Positions 436-56,025 of a DNA stretch of 61,496 nucleotides are shown here, one piece after another (position 1 is the stretch's first letter; every line of letters starts with the position of its first letter). The position numbers were made by a program, and so were the translations under genes. Under the pieces are notes generated by a model. The model saw only the letters and a program-made list of their open reading frames with translations. It was not told the DNA's origin and did not search any database. Origin of the DNA: a virus (Duplodnaviria; Caudoviricetes); the IMG/VR virus record IMGVR_UViG_3300021963_000137, positions 1-61,496 of that record, one strand, 5' to 3'.

Positions 436-3400
436 CTATGCGTGAGTCATCTGAGCAATACCATGTTTTATTACATTACCGTTTGTACGTAATGCTTTAA
501 AACCTTGATCTACTTTTCCTTCAAATTCATTTGCAAAAATCTTAAACATATTTTCTGCACCACCTAATTGTTGGTAAGATTCAATCATATTAAATAAGTC
601 TCTAAATTGTGAACCAGATACTGTTAGATTAGGTATACCATCAATCCAACCTGCTTTCTTAGCTTTATCTAATAATTGATTGTTCTTTGCTTTAAGATCT
701 TCCCAACTTTTGATTGAATCTTTTGATCTATTTTTAATATACGCTTCATACTCTGGACTATTATTAGTCTTCTTATTTAAGTCTTCAAAGAAAGCCCCTA
801 ATGCAGGGAAATCTCCTTTAGTACCTATACCTACGTCTGATGCACCAGCTGTTCTTCTAAACACTTCGTCTTTAGCTTTAATGTAAGCATTCTCTAATTG
901 TTTAGCAAACTTTTTAATTTCAGGTATTGCCTGAGGAATTGCTACGTTATTATAAGTATTACGATAAAGATGCATTGTATCCATTGTTGTGATTAATGAA
1001 TCATGAACAGTAGCTACTGGTAAAGGAATTTTTCTATCCGCATTTAAATCTAACATCATTAGCTTAAGCAAGTCAGCATCAGTAGATTGAATAGGCATAA
1101 CACCTAATAACCTAGACAATGCAGAGCCAAGAGCATTTTCAAACAAATCAAATTTATTTTTGGCTTTGTTATAGAATGATTGATTAGGTTTACCAGCAGC
1201 AGCATTGTACATTCTTCTTGCAGCTTGTACTTCAACAATACCTTCAGGAGCTAAATAAGTATTTGTTTCAATACCTCTATCTACAGTAGTATATGGTTGT
1301 CCTTCAGGAGTCATACCCGTTCCTTCTATATCTCTGAATTGATCAGGAATAAAACCTAAGTCAACAGAAGAATATACAGTGTCATCACCCGTAATACCTT
1401 TTAAAATAGGTATTGAGTTAATAACAGCAAACATACGACCAACCTTTTTAAGCATTCTAGTAAAGCTAGGGTCAATTACTTTTCTTAGAGTTGCATCTAA
1501 TGCGTTAGCTAAATCTTGAGCTGCTTCCGTTGAACTATTGTAATTGGGTAAAACATATTCAGCAAATACAGAATTATATTCTTGAGAATTTTCTAAGAAA
1601 GATAATACATGATCAAAGAACATTCCAGAATCTTTACCATAAGAATTCTGCATTAAAGGTGCCTTAAATAAATCAGTTGCTAATTTTTCATTGACTGCAT
1701 TGCTAAAGAAATTTTTCCAACCATCAAGTCTATCTTTGTTATCAACAATTATATTAGATAAATTATCACCAATAATACTTAAAGCATAGCCACGCATATC
1801 AGATAAGTTAGGGTTATAAGAACCTAATCTAATTGCAACTGTTGGTTTACCTGCATACAAAGATTGAATAAAGATACCATTTTGGTTTCCATCATCATAG
1901 TTTAAAGCACTAAGCTTAATAAAACGATTAGCCATTGCTGGATCTATTGCTGCCATACCTAATTGAGCAAAGTCATCATAAAGATTTTGATGTGACTGGG
2001 CTTCACCTCTAGGCATATTAGCAAGTAGGTTAACAATGTTTGATCCTTCAGCTACATTACCTGATAACCAATCATTATATTCTTTACCTAACATACCTAA
2101 ATGTTTACCAATCTCAGGTGTATACATTCTAATTAATTGTATCTCAGGTTGTTTAACAATATCTTTATTGAGTACAGTTGGGTCACCACTATAACTATAG
2201 TAATTAACTACAGCACATTCCATAAGACCAAGAGCAGTTCTTTCATCAGGAGTTAATGCCATTAAAGCTTTGTTACGGGCTTTACCTGACTTGCTAAATA
2301 TACCCATTGCTTTGTCTTGTAAGTTTTTAATTTTTACAGGATCAAAGAAATGATTAGCGTAAGTTAAACCTTGAATACCAAAGTTAAGCATCTCACGAGT
2401 AGCATTTTTAGACGCTAGTATATCAGTTCCAGCATTAGTTCTGAAAAATCGTTGGTTAGCCATTGAATGAGAGTAACCTGTATACACTACACCTTTAATC
2501 TTCTGAGCATTTGCTAAATCATATTCCATAAATTGAATAGCATTATTTATAGTAGTTTTTGCATGTTGATTTTGTAACTCAACAAATTTAGCTCTAGATA
2601 CTGGGTCATTATTATTATAGTCACTAGGGGGTTTAACTCTTTGTTTAAGCTTATTGTAGTCTGATAAAGATACTTTATGACGTTTAGCAAATGGACTTGA
2701 AGAATAGAAGCCTTCTGGACCATCTACCATATTTTTTTTAATATCTTCTAATTGAATACTAGTAGACAACATGGCTTTTGGTAGGAAAATTTCACCGATA
2801 GAACTAAATATATCTTTAACTGTTTCAGCTACAGGTTGTTTAGCACCTTCTATAAATAAAGAATTCTTTGTACCTTGTGAACCAGGCTTAATAAAATTAG
2901 AACCAGATATTTGTGGTACCTTAGAAGGTAAAGATCTACGTTCATCACCAGCTAATGCAGCAGACATATAGCTTAATTCAGCTGCTAAATCTTTCATTTC
3001 TTTAGAAGAACCATACACAATATTATTATCTTTATCTAACATAGGCAGGTGACGATGTTGAGCAATCTCTGCTTCAACTTTAGCTTCTGCTAATTGTCTT
3101 ACTGCTTGAGCAGGTATATTCATACCTAAGTTAGATAAGGCATTGTGCATTGAAGCAATAGTAGAGTTAACCAAATTAGTTTTTGGTTGGGCATCCATAA
3201 GATTACCGTTTTTGTCTCTTACTTCAGCAACATCTTCAAACGGATCTGTCTTAATACCATTTTTAAATAATCGTGTTTGCTCAGTAGCTCGTGCATGCGC
3301 AATACCTAACACTGTAGAGATTGGTCTGGCATATTCTAAAGGAATATTATTAGTATTTAAAATTTCTAAACCAGCAGGAACACCATAGTACCCTTCAGCA

Positions 3401-4050
3401 GTACTTCTAATAACAGCTTCAGGGCTAAACAAATCAGCAGCAGTAGCATCTGACACCATGCTTAATGCAGGTGCTGCACTATCAGCCCATTGTTTAATAA
3501 TACTATCATCCATACCCATAAATTGAGAAGTACCAGCTGGCATAGATTCTGCTGAAGATACTTCTGCTCTTGCCCTAAGAATAGCTTGACCTGCCTCTAC
3601 TGGATCTTCAGTCATTAAGGCAGGAGCCATATTAGGTCTGGTAGATAAGTCAACTTCTTGTTGTTGACCATACTCAGCCATAGTAATAGGCTGAGTCATA
3701 TACTCACCAGTCTGAGGGTCAAACTGAGGCATACCCTGTTCATCTTCTACTAGGCTAAGTCTTTCTCGACCAGCAAGAGATGATTGAGTAGCCTGAGCTA
3801 GGTCTTCAGGAGTTGATTGTGCAGATAACCTATCTATATTAACTGGACCAGCAATACCCCCAGCGGGTAGGGGTACTACAGGAATAGGCTGTGGATTATA
3901 TACATCCATAGCTTGTTTAACTGCTTCTGTCCCAGGTATTTCTACCTGAGGTGCAGCACCAGTACCAAAGGCTTGGTTAGAGAATGCTTGCAATTGCTCT
4001 GCACTTAAAGGTGCTTTGCCTTGCGTATTTACATTTACATTAATTGCCAT
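436..4050 (-). CDS. Putative virion-encapsidated single-subunit RNA polymerase (internal virion protein)
   Basis: Motif A-like YDDGNQNG, motif B-like KAPLMQNSYG (Kx7YG), PIQSTDA, motif C VHDS, in the canonical order; last gene of the ejection-protein block. Confidence 0.75.
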   Translation of the reverse strand: MAINVNVNTQGKAPLSAEQLQAFSNQAFGTGAAPQVEIPGTEAVKQAMDVYNPQPIPVVPLPAGGIAGPVNIDRLSAQSTPEDLAQATQSSLAGRERLSLVEDEQGMPQFDPQTGEYMTQPITMAEYGQQQEVDLSTRPNMAPALMTEDPVEAGQAILRARAEVSSAESMPAGTSQFMGMDDSIIKQWADSAAPALSMVSDATAADLFSPEAVIRSTAEGYYGVPAGLEILNTNNIPLEYARPISTVLGIAHARATEQTRLFKNGIKTDPFEDVAEVRDKNGNLMDAQPKTNLVNSTIASMHNALSNLGMNIPAQAVRQLAEAKVEAEIAQHRHLPMLDKDNNIVYGSSKEMKDLAAELSYMSAALAGDERRSLPSKVPQISGSNFIKPGSQGTKNSLFIEGAKQPVAETVKDIFSSIGEIFLPKAMLSTSIQLEDIKKNMVDGPEGFYSSSPFAKRHKVSLSDYNKLKQRVKPPSDYNNNDPVSRAKFVELQNQHAKTTINNAIQFMEYDLANAQKIKGVVYTGYSHSMANQRFFRTNAGTDILASKNATREMLNFGIQGLTYANHFFDPVKIKNLQDKAMGIFSKSGKARNKALMALTPDERTALGLMECAVVNYYSYSGDPTVLNKDIVKQPEIQLIRMYTPEIGKHLGMLGKEYNDWLSGNVAEGSNIVNLLANMPRGEAQSHQNLYDDFAQLGMAAIDPAMANRFIKLSALNYDDGNQNGIFIQSLYAGKPTVAIRLGSYNPNLSDMRGYALSIIGDNLSNIIVDNKDRLDGWKNFFSNAVNEKLATDLFKAPLMQNSYGKDSGMFFDHVLSFLENSQEYNSVFAEYVLPNYNSSTEAAQDLANALDATLRKVIDPSFTRMLKKVGRMFAVINSIPILKGITGDDTVYSSVDLGFIPDQFRDIEGTGMTPEGQPYTTVDRGIETNTYLAPEGIVEVQAARRMYNAAAGKPNQSFYNKAKNKFDLFENALGSALSRLLGVMPIQSTDADLLKLMMLDLNADRKIPLPVATVHDSLITTMDTMHLYRNTYNNVAIPQAIPEIKKFAKQLENAYIKAKDEVFRRTAGASDVGIGTKGDFPALGAFFEDLNKKTNNSPEYEAYIKNRSKDSIKSWEDLKAKNNQLLDKAKKAGWIDGIPNLTVSGSQFRDLFNMIESYQQLGGAENMFKIFANEFEGKVDQGFKALRTNGNVIKHGIAQMTHA

Positions 4051-7000
4051 TTATTTTCCTTTAAAAGCATTTACAAGTTCTTCTGCCGTATAGTTACTTA
4101 CTACAGGGAAACTACCAATAACAGGCATAGCTCTCATTATCTTTTTAGCGCCCTTCATTTCTTTTCCTTCAGCTATATTGTATGCACCTTCAATAGGCTT
4201 AGCTACCCATGATACAACAGGTGAAGCACCCTTAGCTTTATCTACAGCCCATTCTAAAGGCTTCTCCGTAAATTTAGCACTACTAAATTCAATAGTAGGT
4301 GATATAGCTTCAGTTATCTTTTCTGCCTGACCAATTAAACCTGATGAATTTAAAATACGTTGAGCTTTCTTTGCTCTACTTTTTACATAAGGGCTATCTT
4401 CACCATAAGATAATTGATCTTTAAACATATTAACAAAAGCACTCATAATTAATGTCATACCCATAGTAGCAAAAGCATCATACCTCATACCAACACTACC
4501 ATTAAGGATGTGTTGCTTATATAGTCTGGGTAGTAGAACTGCTGTAGCTGTACCCATAAACTTTTGCATAGTGGTAACCATTTTAAACCTTGGATCATTA
4601 TAAATCTTTGGTGTGTTAAATGGTTGTGGATTAACAATACGAGAATCAACAAAATTAATTAATGCAGTATAAATATTATCTTGTATAGCTTCATATATAG
4701 GAGCATTTTGTTCTGTATTTAAAAATCCACCTTCAAAAGGAGACATATTAAACTGACTTCCCATAACATCTATTGCATTAAGCATATGAGGTACATTTAA
4801 ACCATACTGCTGTAATTGAATTAAAGCTTGTTGTTGTTCTACAGTTAAACCTTGCCCAGTAGCAAATGCAACATCACGAATAGCAGGGTCAACTCCACTA
4901 AGTGTGTTAAGTTGGGTCATCATAATATCACCAGCAACACTAAGAACAGCCATACGGTTAGCATCTGTCTGCGCTCTTAAAGAAATAGCAGAAACAAACA
5001 CACCCATAATCTTACGTAGTTTGTTAGTATCAGTACCACCAAAGTCATATTTGTTAGATGCATCAAAGCCAGCTTCATGAAAACCTAATCTACTAAAAGT
5101 TTTTCTATTGTAATATCTTTCATGTAGATTATCTATTTCTTTTTGAATTGCATCAAGAGATGCTTGAGAAGCATTAGGTGCATTTAATTTAGAATTTAAC
5201 TCATCTAATCTTTCCTGTAAACTTACATCAGGTATTTGTCTTAAATGCTTAATACCAAATAATGAGGCAGCAAATGATGCACCCTTAGCCATATCAGTAG
5301 CATATTCAGTAGCATATTCTTGTGCATAGGTAGAAAATTGTTTTCCTAATAATTTAGCAGGAGTACCTAAGCTTGCTAAGGTTGCTTCAGCTTGAGAAGA
5401 AATAGCTGCTTTAGATAATGAAGATAACAATGCTGCTGTAACTAAATAATTTTGTAAAGAAGATATAAAAGGACTTTCAATATTATTGTAGTCGTTATTA
5501 GTAATATCATACCATGCTCTTACTTCTGTTGTTGCAGCTTTAAAAGCTTTTTCATCAAACACTCCATTAGAGTCATTAAATTCACCTGCATCTTTGGCAG
5601 CTAATAAAAGCTTACCAAGGATATTACCATCTTTTCCAAGATAAGTTGCATGCATCACTTGATGAGCTGTTCTTTCTTTCATATGCTCAATACTATCAAG
5701 GATATTACTATGAAATATATGTTGCAAATTAGGATTAGTAAAGAAACCATATTGGGATAAATAGTCTACTGCAGCACTTGCTTTTGTTCTATTAGAGCTA
5801 TTAAGGTTATTAACAGCAGTAGTAGCTTCTGATCTTGTTGCTCCACTATTAACCATTTCATTTACAATAAGTGGTTTATTATTATTAAGCTTAGGAACAT
5901 CAATACGAGATGATTGAAATAAAGCATTTTCATCTAGTAAATGATTAAATGGTAACCCAGCATCAATAGCAGATTGTGCCATTGATTTTCTAGTATTATC
6001 TAATTTTTCTTTCCAATTTTGAAGAATAACATTTTGTTCTGTATTAAGTGGAAGTTGTAAACCCTGAGACCAATAATTGTTATAAGCCTCTTTTACCATT
6101 TCATTAACAGACTGTTTGTTAACACCAAAACCCATTATACCAGTTAACTTAGAAGCTAAATCGTATGCTCCACCATCAGACCATTTACCCATAAGCTTTT
6201 GTTGAAATACAGAAGCAGAGTCTCCTGGTAATATACCAAAACCTCCCATTATAGCTTTAAGGTAGGCTGAATTATATTTAAAGTTACCATTAGAATCTGT
6301 AATACTTGGGATAGCAGTATGGCTTAGTTGTCTCCACAAAGATAATGGATCAGAAATTGTTTGCTTAATACCTTCAAACCAACCTTTGTTTGTAGGTAAA
6401 TTAGTTAAAGAGGTATCAGGATGATTTGAGGGTTGAACAGCAGTTTGTCGAGCTAATTGAGTAATATCAACATGACCACCATTTTGAGTTGCTAACCGTT
6501 CTTGATTATCAGCTTGAAATGCTTGTGAATCTCCAACAGCTTTATCATAAAGTCTTTGAGCGTCTACAGCTGAATGCCATCCAGCCATATCAGTTACGCC
6601 TCTTGCTCCATGAAAACCAGCACCCATAACAGCACCACCAACAAAGGCATCTTCTAACTGGTCTTTATAATCTAAATTATATTTATAATTACGATTAAAT
6701 TGACCTGATTGACCTAGCATTTGAAGCTCTTGTTGTAATAACTCAGTACCACCTTCACCACCAGCAGCTATAGTAGCTCTTCCAGTAGCTTTAGCAGCAC
6801 CTTCCATAGATAACAATTGCCTTGTAGCAAATTCTTTTCCAAAGCCTGTGAATGCTAATATCTCTTGTTTAGTAGCTTCTTGTAAAATCTTTTCAGCTTC
6901 TACTCTAGTTGCTGCCTTACCATTTTGAATCATAGCATTAATAACTTCTTCTTTACCTGTAATAGTAAATAAATTAGCACCTAATTTACCAGATAAAAAA

Positions 7001-8352
7001 TCAAGACCTATTCTATCTAATGTACCCGAACCAACACCAGCAGCAATAGCTAATGGTACATTCTTTTTGTCATCAGGTTGGTCAGCATAAAATTGTCCTG
7101 TATAAAGAAAAGAACCAGGTACTGTAGATAAAGCTAAACCTAAAGACGAACCACCAGAGGCATATGCAGCACCCATTGTAATAATCATTTGAGGTAATGT
7201 ACCTGCAAACAAATTACCTGTGTATGTTAATGTATCTTTGGCAGTATTCCACCAACCTGAATCAGTATTAATATCTCTAAATGAAGATAATGTTGCAGGT
7301 AAATCTGCTTGAGTCATTTTAATACCATTGACATGAGCCTTAGCATTGTCTTTAAGTTCATCCCAACCAGTCTTTTCACCAACCATTTCTACGTTACCCC
7401 AAAAGCCTTTGGATATGTCTTTAAGAGCACTGTATAACACTGTACCTTGTTGATTATAAGCTTGGTTCATTATAGTTCTGTCATCATGACGAAACTGTAC
7501 ACCACCTACTATATCAGGCAAATAGGAAGCATAAAACATTTGTTGTTGAGCTGCTTCTTTTTGTTTTAATAATTTAGCTTTAATTTCAGGAGGTATTTGT
7601 TGTCCACCATTTGTTGTGTAGGACATAGCTCCTTCAAAACCTACTGCATTAAAGTCAGGTACCATTTCAGGTTTACCTTCACTAGCTAGTATAGCATCAA
7701 TCTTTTTAATAGTATCTCTGGCATTATTAATACCTTTAATACCTGTACTGTTTTTATATGCAGCATATTGTTCTTCGTTAAAAGCATTTACCTTAGGAAC
7801 ATACTGACGTCTTCCCGCCTCAGCAAACTCCTTGTCCCTACGCTCATTTTCTTTAACTATTCCTGCTAATATAGGGTCTTTTTTAGCTCTTTCAGGAAAA
7901 GCTTTTAAGACAGTTTGCATGTTATAGTACTGAGCAGCAGACTCATCATCAGTAAATCTATTAGGTTCTACTGCACCTATTTTTGTTAAAAAGTTACCAG
8001 CACTTTCACCAGTACTAGGATTAATAACCTTAGCTACTTCACGATTATAACTGGATTTACCAGTAGGTTGTATATCAGTAAATCCAGCTTGATTAAGTAT
8101 CTTAGGAATTTGTGGTGCTACGCCTTGCTCCTGAGGAGGTATAAATATACCTTCATACCTATGACCAACCTCAGGCGCATTGTACCCTTCAATACGATAA
8201 GCTTTATTATTTACTTTAATAGTATCAGGATCAACCCATTGTTGAGTACCTTTTACTTGTTTGTTATTAACAGTTAAAGCAGAGCCTGAAGAAGGGGCTA
8301 TAGATGCTTTATCAGCGAGTACATCATCAACATAATCATCTAACGATTTCAT
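4051..8352 (-). CDS. Large internal virion/ejection protein with N-terminal thermonuclease (SNase)-like domain
   Basis: 1433 aa, Ala/Gly-rich hydrophobic stretches; VDPDTI...YRIEGYNAPE...YNR resembles the SNase DGDT/RLxGIDAPE/YGR motifs. Confidence 0.65.
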   Translation of the reverse strand: MKSLDDYVDDVLADKASIAPSSGSALTVNNKQVKGTQQWVDPDTIKVNNKAYRIEGYNAPEVGHRYEGIFIPPQEQGVAPQIPKILNQAGFTDIQPTGKSSYNREVAKVINPSTGESAGNFLTKIGAVEPNRFTDDESAAQYYNMQTVLKAFPERAKKDPILAGIVKENERRDKEFAEAGRRQYVPKVNAFNEEQYAAYKNSTGIKGINNARDTIKKIDAILASEGKPEMVPDFNAVGFEGAMSYTTNGGQQIPPEIKAKLLKQKEAAQQQMFYASYLPDIVGGVQFRHDDRTIMNQAYNQQGTVLYSALKDISKGFWGNVEMVGEKTGWDELKDNAKAHVNGIKMTQADLPATLSSFRDINTDSGWWNTAKDTLTYTGNLFAGTLPQMIITMGAAYASGGSSLGLALSTVPGSFLYTGQFYADQPDDKKNVPLAIAAGVGSGTLDRIGLDFLSGKLGANLFTITGKEEVINAMIQNGKAATRVEAEKILQEATKQEILAFTGFGKEFATRQLLSMEGAAKATGRATIAAGGEGGTELLQQELQMLGQSGQFNRNYKYNLDYKDQLEDAFVGGAVMGAGFHGARGVTDMAGWHSAVDAQRLYDKAVGDSQAFQADNQERLATQNGGHVDITQLARQTAVQPSNHPDTSLTNLPTNKGWFEGIKQTISDPLSLWRQLSHTAIPSITDSNGNFKYNSAYLKAIMGGFGILPGDSASVFQQKLMGKWSDGGAYDLASKLTGIMGFGVNKQSVNEMVKEAYNNYWSQGLQLPLNTEQNVILQNWKEKLDNTRKSMAQSAIDAGLPFNHLLDENALFQSSRIDVPKLNNNKPLIVNEMVNSGATRSEATTAVNNLNSSNRTKASAAVDYLSQYGFFTNPNLQHIFHSNILDSIEHMKERTAHQVMHATYLGKDGNILGKLLLAAKDAGEFNDSNGVFDEKAFKAATTEVRAWYDITNNDYNNIESPFISSLQNYLVTAALLSSLSKAAISSQAEATLASLGTPAKLLGKQFSTYAQEYATEYATDMAKGASFAASLFGIKHLRQIPDVSLQERLDELNSKLNAPNASQASLDAIQKEIDNLHERYYNRKTFSRLGFHEAGFDASNKYDFGGTDTNKLRKIMGVFVSAISLRAQTDANRMAVLSVAGDIMMTQLNTLSGVDPAIRDVAFATGQGLTVEQQQALIQLQQYGLNVPHMLNAIDVMGSQFNMSPFEGGFLNTEQNAPIYEAIQDNIYTALINFVDSRIVNPQPFNTPKIYNDPRFKMVTTMQKFMGTATAVLLPRLYKQHILNGSVGMRYDAFATMGMTLIMSAFVNMFKDQLSYGEDSPYVKSRAKKAQRILNSSGLIGQAEKITEAISPTIEFSSAKFTEKPLEWAVDKAKGASPVVSWVAKPIEGAYNIAEGKEMKGAKKIMRAMPVIGSFPVVSNYTAEELVNAFKGK

Positions 8353-40663: not shown

Positions 40664-40678
40664 AATCAAAGGTAATAT

Positions 40679-40897: not shown

Positions 40898-40898
40898 A

Positions 40899-42351: not shown

Positions 42352-42352
42352 A

Positions 42353-43966: not shown

Positions 43967-44138
43967 TTCCTTATAACTACAGAAAATTACTAGCTTTTAT
44001 GCTAAGCTTAATGTTCGTATTTGCAACAATAGAATTCTGGTTAACTGTGCTAAAAGTTATCATAATAGGAAGTAGCTTAGGGATCATATATGCAATCCTA
44101 ACCTATGAATCACCAATCAACATCAACAGGAGATAACA

Positions 44139-44648: not shown

Positions 44649-44649
44649 T

Positions 44650-46344: not shown

Positions 46345-46554
46345 ATGAATATTGAAGAACAAAAAGCTTTTGTTAAAGCATATAGTAATAATGTTGCTCA
46401 TAATCCTGATGATTTTGTAGCAGACTTTGTTGCTAAATATAACTTAAATCAAGACATTGATTACTCATATGAACACACATCTATAATGGACGCATTAGGG
46501 ATGTGGCATGACGCTATCAAATGGAAACTAAATGAACTTAATAAGAACAGTTAA
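46345..46554 (+). CDS. Hypothetical protein
   Basis: ORF in operon. Confidence 0.5.
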   Translation: MNIEEQKAFVKAYSNNVAHNPDDFVADFVAKYNLNQDIDYSYEHTSIMDALGMWHDAIKWKLNELNKNS

Positions 46555-47137: not shown

Positions 47138-47138
47138 C

Positions 47139-47396
47139 ATGTCTACGCAAGATTGGTGCAAAACATATAACTATAATCAAGTAATTGATACACGCAACTT
47201 TGAAATCTGTATTGATCTTAATGCTAAGTACGGATACTTCGAACACAAACTATTAGGAGAAGATTGTGCTGGTGGTTTGTGGTTTGATGAATGTATGTTT
47301 CTACAAGACTACGATGGTGTTTATGAGTTACCTGGTGAAGTCATCAGAGAGCTTAGTAGCCGCAGCTATATAGATGCTGAAGAATTTCAACCTTAA
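47139..47396 (+). CDS. Hypothetical phage protein
   Basis: GYFEH...GGLWF...L.DYDGVYELP motif. Confidence 0.65.
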   Translation: MSTQDWCKTYNYNQVIDTRNFEICIDLNAKYGYFEHKLLGEDCAGGLWFDECMFLQDYDGVYELPGEVIRELSSRSYIDAEEFQP

Positions 47397-47400
47397 ACCG

Positions 47401-47419
47401 CAGTTGTCCCCTAATAGGA
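47401..47419 (+). promoter_or_regulatory. Candidate phage RNAP promoter AGTTGTCCCCTAATAGG
   Basis: Repeat motif upstream of the DNA replication block. Confidence 0.8.
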
Positions 47420-47561
47420 GTGAACATGAAAAAGACAATCGTAACAGTTGTGTTTGAACTTAGAGATGAACTATCTAAAGATCAAACCTTAAATACAATA
47501 GACTGCCTTATTGACAGTGATGGTATGCTCAAAGGAGAAACTTATAACGTGGTAGATATTG

Positions 47562-47837
47562 ATGTCATCGAAGAATAATCTTATAGCACGTATCACACAA
47601 GAAGAATGTGCTGAAGTGATACAGGCTATTTCTAAAGCATTACGCTTTGGAGTAGATCATGTGTCACCTGTTACAGGTATCACTAACAAATCTCATCTTG
47701 AAGACGAGATGGGACAATTGATTGCTATGATGCAGCTACTAGCTGATGAATGGAAATTAGAACGTGATAACGTAACAGCAGCATATAAACAAAAACAAAA
47801 GAATTATGACTTATGGGATAAACAATATGCTGATTGA
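47562..47837 (+). CDS. MazG-like NTP pyrophosphohydrolase
   Basis: EECAEVIQAISK..RFG...LEDEMG. Confidence 0.65.
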   Translation: MSSKNNLIARITQEECAEVIQAISKALRFGVDHVSPVTGITNKSHLEDEMGQLIAMMQLLADEWKLERDNVTAAYKQKQKNYDLWDKQYAD

Positions 47838-47950
47838 AGATCATGGTGATATTCTTACTATTTTGTTTGTTCTTAAACCACCTAAAGACCATACTCAACT
47901 ATGGCATTTAACAGAAGTATGTAAAAAACTACAGGAGCTAGTGATACAAT

Positions 47951-48418
47951 ATGAAAACTCAGAAGGATTGGGATCAGTTTTATCTGAAGATAGCACAGCT
48001 AGTAGCGCAACAAAGCTATGCTAAAGACCGTAAAGTAGGTGCTGTTATCGTTAAGAATGATAACATCATTTCTTTTTCTTACAATGGAACACCACGAGGA
48101 TGGGATAATGAAACTCAGACAGATGATGGACAAACTAAATCAATGGTACTACACGCTGAAGCTCAAGCTATTGCTAAGTTGGCTCGATCAACCTTATCTA
48201 GTGATAGCGCTACTCTCTACTGTACCCTTAGTCCTTGTATTGATTGTGCAAAGCTTATTAGTGAAGTGGGTATTAAACGGTTAGTTTATATTGATGAATA
48301 TAAATGTACTCAAGGTATTGATTTCTTAATAGCTAACAATGTATTAGTCAATGAAGAATATTCAACAACAAGATTAGCCAGTAAAGAATGGTTAGCTAGA
48401 ACAGGATTACTATGGTAG
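47951..48418 (+). CDS. dCMP deaminase
   Basis: KVGAVIV, YNGTP, HAE, TLSPCIDC. Confidence 0.9.
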   Translation: MKTQKDWDQFYLKIAQLVAQQSYAKDRKVGAVIVKNDNIISFSYNGTPRGWDNETQTDDGQTKSMVLHAEAQAIAKLARSTLSSDSATLYCTLSPCIDCAKLISEVGIKRLVYIDEYKCTQGIDFLIANNVLVNEEYSTTRLASKEWLARTGLLW

Positions 48419-48597
48419 ATATTTATTTGTTAGTAGCACTTGTTTTATTTCTTGGTGTATATAACTGGAAATTAATAACTCAAGTTAATGACCAAGAAGA
48501 ACAATTAGAAATGGCTAATGATTTAATTTTAACTATGGCAGAAGAACTACAAAGTTTAGGTTCGCCTAATGTTAAGGTAGTTGAACGTGAAAAATAA
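48412..48597 (+). CDS. Small membrane protein
   Basis: N-terminal TM segment. Confidence 0.55.
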   Translation: MVDIYLLVALVLFLGVYNWKLITQVNDQEEQLEMANDLILTMAEELQSLGSPNVKVVEREK

Positions 48598-49063
48598 ACT
48601 ATTTCCTGGTATCACAGTAGAAGTAGTATGTTTACCTAATTGTGAGAAAGAAATAGGTAAACTATTCTTTGATTGCTTAGAAGATTATGTTGAAAGGTTT
48701 AATAAACCAGTTCAATTTCTTAATTTTAAAATACAAATCTGTGCAATAGAATACCCTATTGGCGCAGAGATGGGTATCACTATGTTCAATGAGCAAGATG
48801 ATCGTATACTTATACAAGTAAAAGATCCATTTGTTTCTGAATGCGAGTATAGTGATTGGGCTATGGAAAAATTTATTTGTGTGTTATGTCACGAGATTGT
48901 TCATGCCTGTCAACATTTAACAGGTAGTACTGGTATTAAAATTCCAAAGTATAAGAATAATACAAACAATATACATGATGAATATTTCTTTGATCCTATT
49001 GAAATAGAAGCCAGAATTTTAGAATCAGTTTATTCTACCTATTATGGACAAACTTTATTATGA
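48581..49063 (+). CDS. Zinc metallopeptidase-like protein (HExxH)
   Basis: LCHEIVHACQ...Y...P.EIEA. Confidence 0.7.
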   Translation: MNVKNKLFPGITVEVVCLPNCEKEIGKLFFDCLEDYVERFNKPVQFLNFKIQICAIEYPIGAEMGITMFNEQDDRILIQVKDPFVSECEYSDWAMEKFICVLCHEIVHACQHLTGSTGIKIPKYKNNTNNIHDEYFFDPIEIEARILESVYSTYYGQTLL

Positions 49064-50919
49064 AAAAATTAAGGCTATGTGTAGACATAGAAACAAACGA
49101 CCTGATGCCTAAAGTAGATACTATATGGTGTCTAGTAGCGGTTGATTCAGATACAGGTACTGTATACTCTTTTTCGGATTACGATAATGAATTACCATCA
49201 CTTAAAGAAGGTCTTGATTTTATTAGCACCGCTGATATTTTATTCGGTCATAACTTTATTGGTTATGATCTTGTTGTGCTTAAACATTTACTGGGATGGA
49301 GTCCACCTAATACAGTAAAATTAGTAGACACTTGGATACTATCTATGCTTAACCAATACAAACGAGATCACAAACATGGTCTTGAAGGTTGGGGTTCTAA
49401 ATTAGGTTTTCCTAAACTAGAATTTAATGAATTCAATAAGTATAGTAAAGAAATGCTTACATATTGTATTCGAGATGTAGAACTTAATGTTAAGGTATAC
49501 AAGGTACTTGTAGAAGAAGCTACTAAAATTATATCTAAACATCCTACATATAAAACAGGTATTGAAGTTGAAATGGAGTTTGCTACTATTGAATCTGAAA
49601 TCCAATACAAAGGATGGATGTTTGATATGGCGGGTGCTCAGACTCTGTTAACTAAAATCAATAATAAGCTTGAAGCTATTGAAGCAGTACTTGAGCCTAA
49701 GATAGGTTTAAGATGTCTTAAAGTAGATAAAGCTGATGAATACAAAGAACCTGCTTGGCGTAAAGATGGTTGTTATACAGTAGCAACTGTTAAACACTTT
49801 GATATACCACAAGAAGCAGGTAAAGAAGATAGACCTATTGCTGGTCCATATTGTCGTATTGCTTTTGAACAAGGTAAAGTAGGCAGTATTGAAGTAGTAA
49901 AAGATTGGTTGTATAGTCTTGGATGGGTACCTGATGAATGGAACGTTGAAAAGATTAACGGTAAATTCGTAAACAAAAGCCCTAAGATTACAGAATCTTC
50001 TCTTGAAAAGTTAGGACCAGATGCTATGCTAGTGTCTGAGTATTACACAATCAGAAGCCGTAAAGGTATTTTAGAAGGATGGATTGATGCTGTTAAACAA
50101 TCAAAAGATAACCGTCTTCATGGGCGCATGTGGACTATTGGGACTCCTACCTTTCGTTGTCGTCATGAGCTTGTTGCTAATCTCCCTAGCGTTGATTCGG
50201 TTTATGGCAAAGAGATGCGAGGACTTCTTATCTGTGAAGCTGGAACAAGTATTGTGGGAGCCGACTCATCGGGTAACCAGATGCGTGGTCTATGTCATTA
50301 CATTGGTAACGATGATTTTACTAATGAAGTAATCAACGGAGATGTACATACAAAGAATGCTGAGATTCTTAGCACAGTATATCCATGCTCTCGTAAGACA
50401 GCTAAACCTTGGCTATATGCTTATCTCTTCGGAGCAGGAGCAGGTAAGTCTGGTTTAATTCTTACAGGTAAACGTGATGCTACTATCGGTAAAGCTTCTC
50501 AAGATAAATTTGAGACTGCTATTCCAGGATTAAAAGAACTTAAAGATAAACTTAATGGTATGTTTGAAAAAACATCAGGATCATTTGGTAAAGATAAAGC
50601 TTTTATTCGTGGTGTTGATGGTAGATTAATCTTTGTTAGTTCTGGTCATCAGGTATTAAACTACTTGCTGCAAACAGCTGAAGGTGTTACTTGTAAAGCA
50701 GCTATTGTTTATCTTAAACGTAAGCTACAAGAACGTGGTATACAATTCTACTTTGCTATTCATTATCATGACGAACTAGCAGTAGTAGTTAAAGATGAAT
50801 ATGCAGAAGAAGTAAAAGAGTTAGCCATTGAAGCGTTCACTGAAGCACCTAAATGGTTTGGTATTAATTGTATGGGTGGTGACGCTCACATTGGAAAAAC
50901 ATATGCAGAAGTACACTGA
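49060..50919 (+). CDS. DNA polymerase family A with 3'-5' exonuclease
   Basis: DIET exonuclease motif, GADSSGNQMR motif A, RKTAKPWLYAYLFG motif B, HDE motif C. Confidence 0.95.
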   Translation: MKKLRLCVDIETNDLMPKVDTIWCLVAVDSDTGTVYSFSDYDNELPSLKEGLDFISTADILFGHNFIGYDLVVLKHLLGWSPPNTVKLVDTWILSMLNQYKRDHKHGLEGWGSKLGFPKLEFNEFNKYSKEMLTYCIRDVELNVKVYKVLVEEATKIISKHPTYKTGIEVEMEFATIESEIQYKGWMFDMAGAQTLLTKINNKLEAIEAVLEPKIGLRCLKVDKADEYKEPAWRKDGCYTVATVKHFDIPQEAGKEDRPIAGPYCRIAFEQGKVGSIEVVKDWLYSLGWVPDEWNVEKINGKFVNKSPKITESSLEKLGPDAMLVSEYYTIRSRKGILEGWIDAVKQSKDNRLHGRMWTIGTPTFRCRHELVANLPSVDSVYGKEMRGLLICEAGTSIVGADSSGNQMRGLCHYIGNDDFTNEVINGDVHTKNAEILSTVYPCSRKTAKPWLYAYLFGAGAGKSGLILTGKRDATIGKASQDKFETAIPGLKELKDKLNGMFEKTSGSFGKDKAFIRGVDGRLIFVSSGHQVLNYLLQTAEGVTCKAAIVYLKRKLQERGIQFYFAIHYHDELAVVVKDEYAEEVKELAIEAFTEAPKWFGINCMGGDAHIGKTYAEVH

Positions 50920-51757
50920 TAATGATATTCAGTTTGACATGGCAATTATAGATGCAGACAGTATCATGTATCAAATTGCTTTTGTTGAACCCTCTCCAGC
51001 TAAATGCAAGAAAGGTCTTGACAATAAGCTAAAAGAAATTATGGAAAACACTAATGCCTCTAATGGTGTAGTGTTTATTAAAGGTAGTAATAACTTTAGA
51101 TATGAAGTTGATATTGCTTATAAAGGAAATCGTAAAGATACTATTGAACCTGAAGTAAAAGATCGTATTGAAATGTTATATGAATACGCTAAAGACTTCT
51201 GTGTATTAAGCGATAAAGGTGAGGCAGATGATCTTTGTGGTATCACTGCTCGCAAAGCTCTTGATGAAGGTAAACTATATATTGTATCTCACATAGATAA
51301 AGATCTTAATGCTATCACAGGATGGCATCATAACTTTAAGACAGGTGAGATATATCATATGGATGACTCACAAGCTTATCGTTTCTTAATGACTCAAATC
51401 CTTACAGGAGATGCTACAGATAATATCCAAGGGTTACGTGGTGTAGGTATTAAGACAGCTGAAAAGCTAATTAAAGATACACCTAATAACCTCTTGTGGG
51501 ATAAGGTTATCGAGTTGTGGAAAGCAAAACAAGGAGACTTGTGGTATAATAATTTCCTGAAGTGTGCTAACTGTATTTACATCAGGGAGTTTGAAGAAGA
51601 TCTCAGACCATTAACTTTTGAAGAAATAAAAGAAAGATTAGTATGGACTATGGACATTGGCATCCCCTTACAGACAGACCAGACGGAGCCTTTGGATTTA
51701 TCTACTATGTCGAAAACCTCCAAACAGGAAGACGATACATTGGAAGAAAGCAATTAA
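50903..51757 (+). CDS. 5'-3' exonuclease (T7 gp6-like)
   Basis: IDAD, YKGNR, EADD, DKDL, GDATDNIQG motifs. Confidence 0.9.
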   Translation: MQKYTDNDIQFDMAIIDADSIMYQIAFVEPSPAKCKKGLDNKLKEIMENTNASNGVVFIKGSNNFRYEVDIAYKGNRKDTIEPEVKDRIEMLYEYAKDFCVLSDKGEADDLCGITARKALDEGKLYIVSHIDKDLNAITGWHHNFKTGEIYHMDDSQAYRFLMTQILTGDATDNIQGLRGVGIKTAEKLIKDTPNNLLWDKVIELWKAKQGDLWYNNFLKCANCIYIREFEEDLRPLTFEEIKERLVWTMDIGIPLQTDQTEPLDLSTMSKTSKQEDDTLEESN

Positions 51758-52059
51758 TCAGTGAATCAAAACGACTACTACCTGGAGCAACAAGAAGAAC
51801 CATCACTCGAAGAGAGAGTGATTGGAGAGATTATAGATCCTCGTGCAGAGAACTCTTGGATGATATTAACTACTACGGATTTGATTCATTTACTTTTGTT
51901 ATCTACGAATGGGTATTTGGAAAAGGAATGCTTACGTATCGGGAAGTCCAAGAGCAATGGGAATGTGAAGTCCTTTCGAGAATTGAAACACCTGATGGAG
52001 AACGCCTCTACTACAATGGGAATATTGGGGCAGTAAAATTTCTTAAACCAAAGCTATGA
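51643..52059 (+). CDS. GIY-YIG-like endonuclease
   Basis: FGFIY...YIGRKQ...ESDWRDY.SS...YYNGNI. Confidence 0.75.
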   Translation: MDYGHWHPLTDRPDGAFGFIYYVENLQTGRRYIGRKQLISESKRLLPGATRRTITRRESDWRDYRSSCRELLDDINYYGFDSFTFVIYEWVFGKGMLTYREVQEQWECEVLSRIETPDGERLYYNGNIGAVKFLKPKL

Positions 52060-52209
52060 AAAATAAAAAACCTGAACCTTTAAAAGAATATATTAGTCTT
52101 AAGGATGAATTTAAAAATCAATTCCAAAAGAAAAAGTCTACTCAACAAGAGGCTAGACAGCGTAGAAAAGAAATTAGAGATATGAAGGAACAAAGGGAGT
52201 GGAATTAAT

Positions 52210-53814
52210 ATGTCCCGCTGGATACATGCACCATGTCCTAAATGTAGTTCATCAGACGCATTTAGTTACAAAGAAGATGACTCGCATGGCTTTTGTTTTA
52301 GCTGCCAGAAGTCTTCACCTATAGACCCTAACTTCAAACCAACTGTATATCACAAAGAGAATTACAACATGCATACTTTAGAGGAAATTAAAGATTATGA
52401 CACTAGAGGTTTTCAAGAAAGAGCTATCACAAAAGTGGTTGCATCTCATTATGGAGTTAAAGTATCATATGCAGAAGATGGCACGATCAGTAGCCACTTC
52501 TATCCATATACTCGTGGCGGTGTCGTTGTTGCCTATAAGGAACGTAAACTACCTAAAACATTCCTTATACATGGTGACTTTAAAGATACTGAATTATTTG
52601 GTCAAAATGTTTCCTCAGGTGGTAAGCGCATTGTTATTACTGAAGGAGAATTGGATGCACTTGCCGTGGCACAAGCCCAACACGATAAGTATGCTAAATT
52701 CTATCCGTCAGTCGCAATCCCGTCGGCATCGGCAATGGCTCTAATCCTTAATCAACGTGAGTACCTTCGTAGTTTTGATGAAGTAGTACTTATGTTTGAT
52801 ATGGATGAACCTGGTAGGAAAGCTACTCAACAAGCAGCTAAAATTATTGGTTACGATAAAATTAAGGTAGCAGACTTACCTGAAAAAGATCCATGTGATG
52901 TGTTAATTAAACATGGTTCAGCAGAGTTAATGAAGTGTATCTTTAATGCTCGTACATACAGTCCTGCTGGTGTAGTTAAAGGTGAAGAGATTTGGGAACA
53001 GTATCAACGTAGACAGTCTACTGTATCTGTACCTTATCCTCATTGTTTGAATGGCTTAAATGAAAAGCTATATGGCATGAGACAAGGTGAGATTGTATTG
53101 TTTACTTCAGGTACTGGCTCAGGTAAATCAACTGTTATTAAAGAAATTGTATTTGAAATACTAAGTAAAACTACTGACATGGTAGGTATGGTTTCTCTTG
53201 AAGAATCTGTAGGTGATACTGCTCAGAAGTTTATTAGTATGCAACTTAAAAAGAATCTTAATGTTGATGTTGTATCTGAACAAGAACAATATCAAGCTTT
53301 CCAAACAGTCTTTGGTGATGAACGATTAATCTTATTAGACCATCAAGGTTCTGTTAGTGATGAGTCTCTTATTGATAAGATGGAACACCTAGCATTGATG
53401 GGTTGTAAATATATTATCCTTGATCACATCACTATTGCTGTATCTGAAGGTGCTAAAGGTAAGACAGGTAATGAGGCAGTTGACTCTGTTATGTCTGACT
53501 TACTTAAGATAGCTAAGAAACATAACGTATGGTTAGGTGTTGTATCTCACCTACGTAAAGGTGAAAAACCTTTTGAAGAAGGTAACCTACCTACTATTGA
53601 TGACATCAAGGGTTCTGGTTCTATCAAACAAATTTCATTTGATATCATCGCCTTTGCACGTAATATGATTGCTGAAACAGAAGCAATGCGTAATACTATT
53701 CGCCTTCGTGTTCTCAAATCTCGTTTTACTGGTCTTACAGGTGACTGTGGTACTACTAAATATGATGCTGGCACAGGGCGACTACAACAAAATACATTCG
53801 TAGACTTTCAATAA
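52210..53814 (+). CDS. Primase-helicase (T7 gp4-like)
   Basis: CPKC...CFSC zinc finger, TOPRIM EGE.D and DMD, Walker A GTGSGKST, DIKGSG. Confidence 0.95.
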   Translation: MSRWIHAPCPKCSSSDAFSYKEDDSHGFCFSCQKSSPIDPNFKPTVYHKENYNMHTLEEIKDYDTRGFQERAITKVVASHYGVKVSYAEDGTISSHFYPYTRGGVVVAYKERKLPKTFLIHGDFKDTELFGQNVSSGGKRIVITEGELDALAVAQAQHDKYAKFYPSVAIPSASAMALILNQREYLRSFDEVVLMFDMDEPGRKATQQAAKIIGYDKIKVADLPEKDPCDVLIKHGSAELMKCIFNARTYSPAGVVKGEEIWEQYQRRQSTVSVPYPHCLNGLNEKLYGMRQGEIVLFTSGTGSGKSTVIKEIVFEILSKTTDMVGMVSLEESVGDTAQKFISMQLKKNLNVDVVSEQEQYQAFQTVFGDERLILLDHQGSVSDESLIDKMEHLALMGCKYIILDHITIAVSEGAKGKTGNEAVDSVMSDLLKIAKKHNVWLGVVSHLRKGEKPFEEGNLPTIDDIKGSGSIKQISFDIIAFARNMIAETEAMRNTIRLRVLKSRFTGLTGDCGTTKYDAGTGRLQQNTFVDFQ

Positions 53815-53823
53815 AAGGAATAC

Positions 53824-56025
53824 ATGAATCCAGTACAATATCTATCTGAAAGAGTAGCCAAAGTCGTGGTCAACTCAGATAAGATTTATAATGAAGGTGC
53901 TCGACTATTAGCACATCATCCAACATGGGAATATGACTTAGAAAGGTTTGTAAATGAATCGTGGGACACACTCCTCCGCTACTGTATTCGCAACAAGAAT
54001 GCAACTCATAGCGCATCAGTTAAACTTACTTTTGCAAGTGACCTTATCGGAAAACGAATCGCAAGAGCTATTGGAACTGATGAAAGCAACATCAAATCAA
54101 CTCTCGCTCTTGGAGACATTCTACTCGAAACATTTCTCCAAGATAGTCTTATAGATATCTTCAGAGAGTATGATGGATTTAAAGCTCCATACATGGTGCG
54201 TATTGTCAACATGCCTGACAATATTAAGCCTACATTAATAGGTACTTCATTTGAACCTTTATTACCTATAGCTGGTCTATATAGTAACCTTACTAAAGAA
54301 CCATTCATTAAAGGATGGACTAACAGTAAGCTGTTTCATGAGTACTTAGATAAACCTTTTGTACGTGCATTAGAAACATTACGCCAACAACCTTGGGTAT
54401 TAAATCAAGGTGTGTTAGAAGGTATGAGAAACTATAAGCCAACTGAAATACTAAAGTTGGTTGATGATGATGGTGTATTATATGACTACAACATTCATTA
54501 TGAAAATTTAGAACTACCAAAGAAGCTTAAGCACCTAGATGGTACTTCTTTCCTTGGTAAGAAAGACCCTAAGCTACAACGTATGCTTAGTAAGTTCTTT
54601 GAATACAATCAAGTAGTAAAGAAAGCTGAATTGATTGGTGATAGATCATTCTATCAAGAAGTATCCTGTGACTATCGTGGTCGAGTATACTATGCTGAAT
54701 CCTTCTTAGAGTTTCAGGGTAGTGACTTGGCTCGTAGTCTCTTTTTATTCCAGAATAAAAAAGAAATGGATGATCGTGGTTACTTCTGGCTTAAGGTTCA
54801 TACAGCAGGATGCTATAATGAATCGTTTAATGTTAATAAATTACCACATTATTTTACTACTGACTATAAGACTTATTTAAAAGGAGAAGGTTTAGATACT
54901 ATCTCCCTTGATAAAATGACTCTTGAAGATAGAGCTATATGGGTAGATAATAATTTAATTAAATTAGCTAACATTGCTAATCAATATACTATAGATACAT
55001 CCGCTGAAAAGCCTTATAGTTTATTAGCTTGTTGTCTTGAAATTAAAAATTATATCCAAGCTAAATCTAAAGGTAAGAAGCATATGTCTGGTCTTCCTAT
55101 ACCTATTGATGGTAGTAATAATGGATGGCAGCATCTGGCAGCTATGTCTAGAGATACCCAAGCAGCTACCTTAGTATCATTAGTACCTACACCTATACAG
55201 AAAGACTTTTATGTAGCTGTGGCTAAAGAGCTAATTAACATTATGCCTGACTACTTTAAACAAAAGAATATGCCTATGAAAGATATCCGTAAAGGTATTG
55301 CTAAACGAGGTTCTATGACTCGTGCATACTCAGCAGGTAAACAACGTATTGCTAAGAATATGTATGATGACTGCCATGTAGAAGGATTTACTGTTAAATA
55401 TGGTATCACAGAAAAAGAATGTGGAGACTTAGCAGGTAACCTAATTAAGGCTATTAATGCAGTATGCTCTGGTCCATTAAAGACAACTAAGTTCTTACAA
55501 AAAATTGCTGAACATGAGCTTAACTCTGGTCGTAATCAACTATCATGGCATACACCTTCAGGATTCCCTGTAGTGTATAAAGCATTTCTTCAGCATGAAC
55601 GTAAACATAGAGGTACTATTAGAGGTATACCTGGAAACCCTAAAGGAAGGATTAGACATGTTATTAAAGTGGATGTACTCAATAAAGATACAGGTGAAAA
55701 AGTTCCTTGTAGACGCTCCTTTGCTTCTGGCATCAGCCCTAATCTCGTTCATAGTTACGATGCTGCTCATATGGCTAATGTTATCTCTATTTTTAATGGC
55801 AACTTTGGTGCTGTCCACGACAGCTTTAGTACTCATGCCAGTGAAGTGGATTTTCTTCAGGAAGTAACTAAGATGACCTTTGTAGCACAGTATGATATAG
55901 AAAACTTCTTTAGTAATCTTATGGATACATTAATGCTTAACAAAGATACATTCACTTACCCTCCACCAGAAGAAGGTACATTAGATTTAAAACAAGTCTA
56001 TGAATCTAAATACTTTTTCTGCTAG
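53824..56025 (+). CDS. T7-type single-subunit DNA-directed RNA polymerase
   Basis: DYRGRVY, motif A IDGSNNGWQH, motif B RKGIAKRGSMTRAY, PNLVHSYDA, motif C VHDSF. Confidence 0.95.
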   Translation: MNPVQYLSERVAKVVVNSDKIYNEGARLLAHHPTWEYDLERFVNESWDTLLRYCIRNKNATHSASVKLTFASDLIGKRIARAIGTDESNIKSTLALGDILLETFLQDSLIDIFREYDGFKAPYMVRIVNMPDNIKPTLIGTSFEPLLPIAGLYSNLTKEPFIKGWTNSKLFHEYLDKPFVRALETLRQQPWVLNQGVLEGMRNYKPTEILKLVDDDGVLYDYNIHYENLELPKKLKHLDGTSFLGKKDPKLQRMLSKFFEYNQVVKKAELIGDRSFYQEVSCDYRGRVYYAESFLEFQGSDLARSLFLFQNKKEMDDRGYFWLKVHTAGCYNESFNVNKLPHYFTTDYKTYLKGEGLDTISLDKMTLEDRAIWVDNNLIKLANIANQYTIDTSAEKPYSLLACCLEIKNYIQAKSKGKKHMSGLPIPIDGSNNGWQHLAAMSRDTQAATLVSLVPTPIQKDFYVAVAKELINIMPDYFKQKNMPMKDIRKGIAKRGSMTRAYSAGKQRIAKNMYDDCHVEGFTVKYGITEKECGDLAGNLIKAINAVCSGPLKTTKFLQKIAEHELNSGRNQLSWHTPSGFPVVYKAFLQHERKHRGTIRGIPGNPKGRIRHVIKVDVLNKDTGEKVPCRRSFASGISPNLVHSYDAAHMANVISIFNGNFGAVHDSFSTHASEVDFLQEVTKMTFVAQYDIENFFSNLMDTLMLNKDTFTYPPPEEGTLDLKQVYESKYFFC

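Follow-up and report, generated by a model that had tools for sequence, protein, structure and literature searches.

Virion-carried single-subunit RNA polymerases (RNAPs) are known in detail only from N4-type phages, in which the enzyme is a giant of 3500 amino acids (aa). According to the available text of a 2015 review (PMC4496689), the injected polymerase of N4 is encoded late and reads hairpin promoters at the end of the genome that enters the cell first, these early promoters combine fixed bases with freely covarying stems, the late genes are transcribed by the host RNAP, and a heterodimeric RNAPII is found in all phages with a virion RNAP (vRNAP) but two. The descriptions available for the crAss-like phage phi14:2 and the Thermus phage P23-45 also have a virion polymerase that transcribes the first genes, followed by a second phage polymerase. 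In the Alteromonas phages AltAD45-P1 to P4 the N4-type virion polymerase is re-partitioned among adjacent giant proteins of 1404 and 2481 aa, and the available part of the report mentions no separate T7-type RNAP (PMC3821669). Here we analysed the IMG/VR virus contig IMGVR_UViG_3300021963_000137 (61,496 bases, completeness rating 99 %; the window, that is the whole stretch). It is the whole genome of a podovirus of the type of Roseophage CRP-7 and encodes two single-subunit RNAPs, a T7-type enzyme of 733 aa and a second, very divergent one of 1204 aa, which is a candidate virion polymerase. The genes form two arms: their point of divergence is at 35256/35392, and they meet again at 388/436, where a strong hairpin terminator is situated.

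The gene of the second polymerase (436-4050, - strand) closes the late arm and is preceded there by two giant open reading frames (ORFs). The 1204-aa protein had no match in Pfam, in PHROG, among the PDB sequences (phmmer) or, by tblastn, in 50,697 phage records. Searches with 17 members of the family likewise gave no match to PF00940 at E <= 1, and the only Pfam family obtained with them was DNA_pol_A, sub-threshold and in 2/17. Profiles of 19 and 17 relatives returned from the PDB chains motif C of Taq polymerase (E 2.7) or unrelated matches. With hhalign there was no alignment of note between the protein and the T7-type RNAP of the window as a single sequence, and against a 12-sequence profile of T7-type RNAPs motif C alone was aligned, at probability 0.13. 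The stretch aligning with motif C of the phage's own T7-type RNAP and of Taq polymerase is Q..D...HDS (hhalign, HMMER; both non-significant).

The structure of the protein was predicted by AlphaFold2, using the 1204-aa sequence and an alignment of 18 homologues. Residues 6-1204 were modelled, with a predicted local distance difference test score (pLDDT) of 81 and a predicted template modelling score (pTM) of 0.82. Foldseek comparison of the model with the PDB gave 70 matches at E <= 1e-3 (best E 3.6e-13), and among the PDB matches listed all were yeast or human mitochondrial RNAP or T7 RNAP. The alignments extended over about 930-1240 columns, comprising most of both proteins, with target-normalised TM values of 0.37-0.54 and E values from 3.6e-13 to 1e-9. 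In BFVD the model matched T7-like phage RNAPs at E 1e-13 and pieces of N4-like vRNAPs at 1e-9 to 5e-7. By its predicted fold the 1204-aa protein is a real, extremely divergent member of the superfamily that includes the T7, mitochondrial and N4 enzymes. Structure prediction can recover whole polymerase families that are missed by sequence models.

Three blocks are invariant in 19 sequences of the family: D719-D720-G-N-Q-N-G..Q, K796..M800..Y804-G-K and Q988..D991..K996...H1016-D1017-S. We take these blocks, from their form and spacing, to resemble motifs A, B and C of T7 RNAP, and D720, D1017, K796 and Y804 presumably correspond to T7 residues D537, D812, K631 and Y639. K796 was invariant in the near family, and D720, Y804-G805, D991 and D1017 were still invariant when 11 members with about 20 % identity were compared. 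Four residues before the motif B lysine the protein has a threonine; in T7 RNAP this position is occupied by an arginine. A profile of the core, run against 1.84 billion representatives, detected 216 clusters at E <= 1e-3 and 169 at E <= 1e-10; among the 150 listed, the full-length members were nearly all 1100-1600 aa long (the longest 1606 aa), with the core located C-terminally. Two alleles, which could be compared over 559 codons, differed by 56 synonymous and 10 non-synonymous changes, none of them in the catalytic motifs, indicating that the second polymerase is under purifying selection. Judged from the model, the conserved residues and the allele comparison, the protein is probably active as an RNAP. 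Its family is large and aquatic, and the members have so far been annotated solely as hypothetical proteins.

The other enzyme is a canonical single-chain T7-type RNAP of 733 aa (53824-56025, + strand; PF00940, E 3.4e-55; PHROG 414, E 1.6e-94), whose gene is located towards the end of the + arm, after that of the primase-helicase. In the PDB its sequence matched mitochondrial RNAP (E 2e-29) and T7 RNAP (E 1e-24). The motifs DYRGR, DGSNNGWQH and HDS were invariant in 12 relatives.

Seven promoter-like sites of about 20 bp (GTCCCCTAATAGG) serve the replication and the late arms. With a weight matrix built from the seven sites themselves the sites scored 29-35 bits, the next best sequence 18.4 and 20 shuffles, used as control, at most 15.3. 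Each site is correctly oriented and closely precedes a gene or the tRNA pair. On the + strand they were found at 39518-39543 (34.6 bits; the first of this arm, with the exact 11-mer at 39526-39536), at 47398-47423 in the replication arm (33.5 bits; site 47406), at 56020-56045 directly after the RNAP stop codon and before the ribonucleotide reductase gene (30.3 bits; site 56028), and at 58190-58215 directly before tRNA-Met/tRNA-Arg (34.8 bits; site 58198). On the - strand, the site at 35271-35296 (29.1 bits; site 35288) heads the late arm, its 11-mer ending 22 nucleotides (nt) before the ATG of terL, that at 40042-40067 (33.0 bits; site 40059) belongs to an inverted gene at 39643-40038, and that at 17852-17877 (33.5 bits; site 17869) lies inside the late arm, before the genes extending from 16292-17833 down to the second polymerase. 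The matrix detected no T7-type site on the + strand between 35.3 and 39.5 kb.

Relatives carry other variants, GTCGGTACATAATAG or GTCGGTTCCTAATAG, at the same place before terL. The GTCCCCTAATA variant was present in 7/7 loci whose T7-type RNAP is at least 84 % identical to that of the window and in 0/29 loci in which this identity is 82 % or less; the second polymerases of the seven loci are 47-97 % identical to the window's. Since the promoter variant tracks the T7-type enzyme and not the second polymerase, we assign the motif to the T7-type enzyme, whose targets would then be the replication genes, the two late operons and the tRNAs. Between the T7-type RNAPs that go with the GTCCCCTAATA promoter and those that do not there are 21 fixed differences, which are scattered; two of them, H595 and K607, fall at what we take, by alignment with T7, to be the specificity loop, a coincidence too weak to use. 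The swapped assignment, with GTCCCCTAATAGG as the target of the virion enzyme and the early elements described below (E1 and E2) as that of the T7-type enzyme, was rejected because the motif tracks the T7-type enzyme and because transcription of the early genes has to precede the appearance of this enzyme. The initial annotation had noticed a single-chain T7-type RNAP near the end of the replication arm, a very divergent second RNAP in the virion block and a repeated promoter occurring only from 39.5 kb onward and on the late arm. The first of these is the PF00940 gene after the primase-helicase gene, the second agrees with the predicted RNAP fold of the last late-arm product, and the third with the distribution of the seven sites.

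Co-occurrence of the two polymerases in related genomes, which had been suggested as a check, was observed. Close relatives of the second polymerase are encoded by 46 IMG/VR loci; the T7-type RNAP gene is convergent on it in 36 of these, and the other 10 end at most 3.9 kb past the second polymerase gene (in the window 3.8 kb are needed). Immediate convergence of the T7-type RNAP gene was also seen in 24/24 loci of a deeper clade with only about 20 % identity. Both polymerase genes are thus present on every related contig with enough flank. A homologue of the 1433-aa giant protein (see below) is encoded directly upstream of the second polymerase in 42/46 loci, and the other 4 begin inside the polymerase gene. 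The two polymerase genes evolve at very different rates: in two loci (L008 and L012) the T7-type RNAP is 100 % and the primase-helicase 98 % identical to that of the window, the second polymerase 49 % and the 1433-aa protein 43 %. This mosaic suggests that the putative injected proteins are either swapped between lineages or evolve far faster.

The order of events that we propose is the following. The second polymerase would be made late, in one operon with two cysteine-free giant proteins, and would be carried over to transcribe the first 4 kb or so that enter the next cell (35.3-39.5 kb), a stretch in which elements consisting of a hairpin plus fixed sequence would replace the ordinary promoter. 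Part of the early transcription would have to continue to the T7-type RNAP gene. The T7-type enzyme would then take over from the seven GTCCCCTAATAGG promoters to transcribe replication genes, tRNAs and late operons. That an injected second polymerase starts the infection and the T7-type enzyme follows is a reading towards which we lean, if narrowly. Packaging, specificity for the early genes and independence from host RNAP are elements of it that we infer.

The + arm opens with about 4 kb of small genes without assigned function. When ten early ORFs were compared with PHROG none gave an informative match: six had no family, three belonged to families of unknown function and one to dCMP deaminase. 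Between these genes two classes of structured element were found on the + strand. E1 consists of a fixed 5' box, a variable hairpin and a fixed 3' box, GGAGAGCG(A)TCTTGCTCTGT, and is present in three copies: 35649-35718, where the variable stem-loop is followed by the fixed box AGAGCGTCTTGCTCT at 35697-35711 (RNA fold z-score -4.1), 35858-35927 (fixed box 35906-35921), and 36145-36214 (fixed box 36193-36208; RNA fold z-score -4.7). E2 is a hairpin followed by a second hairpin with the fixed loop GGTAAGTA, and its two stem-loop copies are at 36534-36593 (loop 36576-36583) and 36910-36969 (loop 36952-36959). Each element follows a stop codon and precedes the ribosome-binding site of the next gene, at a distance of 17-40 nt from the ATG, and neither class occurs elsewhere in the genome.

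The survey of early elements comprised 72 sources, the window and 71 of 80 terL-anchored loci, nine having been left out for too little DNA upstream of terL. The strict E1 pattern was present in 44/72 sources and the E2 loop in 45/72, with variant forms in others. In 27 copies of E1, compensatory changes were found in 7/8 pairs of the variable stem. The small 5-bp hairpin at the 3' side of E1 has its own compensatory change, from AGAGC/GCTCT to ACAGC/GCTGT, in three instances on two contigs. In the early regions of L063, L097 and L115 we noted a third class, in which TACCTGTAG, a variable hairpin and then CTATGGGTA follow each other, with one or two copies per genome before early genes.

The block TCTTTGTGTGTGAAAAAGAATCA at 35322-35344 (+ strand), which is conserved in all subgroups, marks the start of an adenine-poor leader; it may represent the first promoter of the early genes or else the end of the genome. 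At 35345-35660 of the window, and likewise in L059, L068, L084 and L105, the leader and the gene or genes that come first have only 0-2 A per 50 nt on the coding strand; in L105 this poverty spans about 500 nt through an ORF, implying a constraint on the nucleic acid and not on the protein. In L068, L074, L076, L084 and L121 a motif region lies between the terL promoter and the conserved block TCTTTGTGTGTGAAAAAG. Subgroups B and C have three to four G-rich repeats (AAGTCT, 1-3 nt, GGG) just upstream of TCTTTGTGTGTGAAAAAG, of which the window has one copy; they could be a packaging or end-recognition site, or an origin. Two metatranscriptome runs (lake water and freshwater) contained 5-6 % of the sampled words. 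Over 35001-55000 these runs consisted of assembled contigs of relatives, mostly 88-97 % alike, and were uninformative on starts, strands and transcription.

A scan for sigma70-type promoters between 35000 and 41000 gave 13 sites against 17.2 expected, and on the + strand no such site was present before 37698; the consensus used was of the E. coli type, which may not be that of the host. Two earlier claims, that no good sigma70 promoter precedes the first early genes and that the earliest genes carry structured elements of a different kind, held here, the former within the limits of that consensus and the latter in the form of E1 and E2, which are confined to 35.69-36.96 kb.

Several observations weigh against an injected polymerase that acts at E1 and E2 and hands over to the T7-type enzyme. 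Some 18 kb separate the early region from the T7-type RNAP gene downstream, which has no E1 or E2 nearby; promoters of the enzyme itself, at 39526 and 47406, and a terminator-like hairpin at 40630-40659 lie in between. This distance and the intervening signals make the first expression of the T7-type RNAP hard to explain and argue against a tidy cascade. The fixed sequences of E1 and E2 are unchanged where the second polymerases are only 32-51 % identical, unlike the T7-type promoter, which changes between enzymes that are 80-84 % identical, and a more conserved reader, the host or an early protein, would fit this constancy more simply. Two classes of element, three in relatives, with unrelated loops are awkward for one polymerase. 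E1 can also be folded as one long interrupted stem with 92.3 % of the cells paired, and then resembles a site of RNA processing or stability; an RNA element bound by a protein could equally show such fixed bases together with covarying stems. Little weight attaches to the missing sigma70-type promoters, since the consensus of the host may be a different one. The predicted structure of the second polymerase is no closer to N4 vRNAP than to the T7-like enzymes, and its packaging is something that we infer from position, neighbours and composition. A fold search with the 1433-aa neighbour against the PDB gave 0 matches at E <= 1e-3, the model being poor.

Much of this evidence would be accommodated if the early region were read by the host RNAP, which might also transcribe much of the replication arm as far as the gene of the T7-type RNAP. 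E1 and E2 would then be RNA elements acting, for instance, in processing, stability, antitermination or translational control, and the injected polymerase would mainly serve another purpose, such as pulling DNA into the cell or priming replication. The constancy of the elements while the second polymerase diverges to 32 % identity, the long E1 stem directly after each stop codon with its low z-scores, and the T7-type gene at the far end of the replication arm all favour this explanation. There are precedents in its favour: RNase III hairpins lie between the early genes of T7, and the middle region of phiKMV-type phages has the RNAP gene as its last. We nevertheless regard it as rather unlikely. 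Besides the shortage of sigma70-like sites (none on the + strand at 35000-37698), the leader at 35345-35500 is almost without A on the coding strand, so that no -10 box of the TATAAT type is possible there. The outer parts of E1 are fixed in sequence and not merely paired, which, with the compensatory change in the 5-bp hairpin, points to sequence-specific recognition, and the conservation of the catalytic residues of the second polymerase across 216 clusters shows that a polymerase role is under selection.

The initial annotation had proposed a cascade of two polymerases, in which the virion enzyme transcribes the early genes and the T7-type enzyme the middle and late ones. Both enzymes proved to be real and linked throughout the family, and the repeated motif, which fronts late and replication genes, goes with the T7-type enzyme. 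The position of the second polymerase in the late operon and its near absence of cysteine are as expected for an injected protein, which might then read the early genes. One point, the location of the T7-type RNAP gene about 18 kb away, speaks against a tidy form of the cascade.

A virion location of the second polymerase is suggested first by its operon. The only promoters on the - arm that lead to it are those at 35288 and 17869, and no strong - strand terminator was found between 17869 and 436; as the last gene of the operon, served by T7-type promoters only, it must be made late. T7-type promoters already serve the late genes, so an additional polymerase that appears only at this stage would be most useful to the next infection. 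Directly upstream lies the gene of the 1433-aa giant protein (4051-8352, - strand), preceded by that of a 1031-aa giant protein (8370-11465, - strand; no PHROG family). Both are cysteine-free candidate ejection proteins. The second polymerase has 1 Cys in 1204 residues, the neighbours have 0/1433 and 0/1031, and members of the second-polymerase family have 0-2. The counts for the T7-type RNAP (10/733), the DNA polymerase (12/619), the primase-helicase (9/534) and the reductase (14/623) amount to 1.4-2.3 %. Lack of cysteine is listed among the traits suggesting a virion RNAP in the available part of PMC10747016. In the available text of PMC13434306, N4-type phages eject three proteins, including the polymerase, and their injected proteins are encoded in a comparable position. 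By analogy, the location in the late operon, the giant-gene cluster and the scarcity of cysteine suggest that the second polymerase is an injected virion protein.

The 1433-aa protein has no Pfam or PHROG family. Its model (residues 235-1433) was nearly all helical and of low confidence (pLDDT 59.6), and with this poor model, for which the PDB gave 0 matches, an attempt to liken the protein to known ejection proteins failed. In the Atlas a neighbour cluster of the protein is named TNase-like, with an SNase domain in 48 % of the members (score 0.89), which we note as a lead only.

Alternatively, the second polymerase might stay unpackaged and act late in the cell that produces it, on a subset of late genes, in the priming of late replication or in concatemer processing. 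Its expression together with the late genes would agree with such a role, but these genes already carry T7-type promoters, and the late arm yielded no further repeated motif that would be a third one. In its cysteine content the protein resembles the two giants next to it and differs from all the cytoplasmic enzymes that the phage encodes. It is always the last in the giant cluster, the kind of position in which N4-type phages encode their injected proteins according to the available text of PMC13434306. We consider this alternative improbable. Very improbable is a structural or ejection protein of polymerase descent that no longer polymerises: the failure of sequence searches to recognise an RNAP and the threonine in place of the T7 arginine before motif B would suit it, but both catalytic aspartates, the motif B tyrosine-glycine and their surroundings are invariant down to about 20 % identity, and the two alleles testify to purifying selection.

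If the injected second polymerase does start the infection, an enzyme one third the size of the N4 giant, with a T7-type partner handling the late genes, would be a second and simpler solution, and a possible route to full independence from host transcription. We put forward only tentatively that the whole programme could run without host RNAP, with a compact virion polymerase (about 1200 aa) of a hitherto unrecognised family reading DNA hairpins of two classes on an adenine-poor segment that enters first, its transcripts extending to the T7-type RNAP gene, and the T7-type enzyme doing all middle and late transcription. Such a host-independent design, if true, would be ancient and widespread in aquatic phages, given the 216 clusters and the linkage of both genes in every informative contig. 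The cultured relative CRP-7 makes the question accessible to experiment, and one or two new orthogonal polymerase-promoter pairs would interest tool builders.

As regards the remainder of the genome, window positions 59379-61496 are a second copy, 97 % identical, of 1-2117; this terminal repeat of 2.1 kb is an assembly overlap of two alleles and implies a unit genome of about 59.4 kb. The initial annotation is corrected in this point: the 552-aa ORF at 59815-61473 is the second allele of the C-terminal part of the second polymerase. The - arm encodes the late functions, namely the large terminase, portal, scaffold, major capsid protein, tail fibres and virion proteins, and ends with three giant ORFs in the order 1031, 1433 and 1204 aa. 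In the + arm the small early genes are followed by those of a single-stranded DNA-binding (SSB)-like protein, an endonuclease, a family A DNA polymerase, an exonuclease and the primase-helicase, and then by the T7-type RNAP, a class II ribonucleotide reductase and two tRNAs, tRNA-Met and tRNA-Arg, at 58217-58374. The terminator at the convergence of the arms is a hairpin at 396-425 with 13 pairs, 7 of them G-C, and T-runs on both sides. An 83 % identical copy of this junction terminator (390-430) was found at 40624-40664, after the SSB-like gene. The inverted gene at 39643-40038 is the only well-supported - strand gene of the + arm; it encodes 131 aa of no informative family, lies between the facing promoters at 39526 (+ strand) and 40059 (- strand), and has its own terminator-like hairpin at 39605-39636. 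In the replication arm a 201-aa ORF at 46532-47137 weakly matched a homing-endonuclease PHROG (E 1.8e-6). Inside the 1188-aa tail-fibre gene, at 24100-24930, diverged repeats with a period of 21 nt (7 residues) form a long array, and coding repeats in the tail fibre dominated the general repeat search.

Compared with T7 and phiKMV (Autographiviridae), the phage shares an RNAP of PF00940, promoters of about 20 bp ending in TAATAGG that serve replication and virion genes and that we take to resemble the T7 promoter consensus, and hairpin terminators with T-runs. It differs in having two divergent arms instead of one gene direction, a genome of 59 kb versus about 40 kb, a second polymerase and, at least by the E. 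coli-type consensus, no sigma70-type early promoters on the + strand before 37698. Its T7-type RNAP is 24-27 % identical to the Autographiviridae matches over 81-94 % of the length. By gene order and by the number of its polymerases the phage is not T7-like. The virion RNAPs of phi14:2 and P23-45 are of the two-barrel, cellular type, not T7-type single-subunit enzymes as here. The re-partitioned polymerase genes of AltAD45-P1 to P4 are still similar to N4 gp50 by BLASTP, according to the available part of the report (PMC3821669), unlike the second polymerase of the window.

The nearest named phage, and the only cultured relative found, is Roseophage CRP-7 (MK613349). It has the same two-arm layout, with a T7-type RNAP 33 % identical to that of the window encoded after the primase gene, and its late arm is likewise closed by three giant ORFs, gp35, gp34 and gp33. 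Of these gp33 is the homologue of the second polymerase (hhalign probability 99.2 %, E 2.5e-19, 655 columns, HD motif kept). The two phages are only very distantly related: their second polymerases gave no match to each other with tblastn, and the early intergenic elements differ in sequence. Within 300-1200 of CRP-7 (L001) an early intergenic hairpin with the loop TGTAAT occurs twice, followed about 40 nt later by a conserved TATATCTCG..AAAGGA box before each ATG, a hairpin design analogous to that of E1 and E2 but unrelated in sequence. The available text of the CRP-7 paper names ORF30 alone as RNAP, and the database record annotates gp33-35 as hypothetical. The literature searched, as far as its text was available and exclusive of the supplementary annotation of CRP-7, does not describe any compact single-subunit RNAP that phages of the CRP-7 type would have as a second polymerase.

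In N4 and the other Schitoviridae the virion RNAP gp50 acts first, then RNAPII (gp15 and gp16) and then host RNAP. Like gp50, the second polymerase of the window is encoded with the late genes. Three giant proteins are encoded in a row in the window, and three proteins including the polymerase are ejected by N4, as stated in the available text of PMC13434306. E1 and E2 combine fixed bases with covarying stems before early starts and, if they act in DNA and start transcripts, could be counterparts of the N4 hairpin promoters. The differences are as substantial. The enzyme has 1204 aa versus the three domains and about 3500 aa of gp50, with no detectable sequence similarity (no PHROG match, N4-like families included, and no tblastn match in the 50,697 phage records). 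Its partner is one chain of 733 aa and not a heterodimer, is encoded outside the early region, and has promoters that also front late genes (22 nt before terL, and at 17869). The hairpin loops are of 5-8 nt; those of N4 are of 3 nt. The idea that the three giants are a split gp50 was rejected, as the polymerase is the last of the three and not the middle part. With its single-chain partner, T7-type late promoters, two arms and two polymerases the phage conforms to neither the N4 nor the T7 model, as claimed at the outset. The system is nearest to N4 in its logic, yet stands outside the N4 vRNAP family by size, sequence and partner enzyme.

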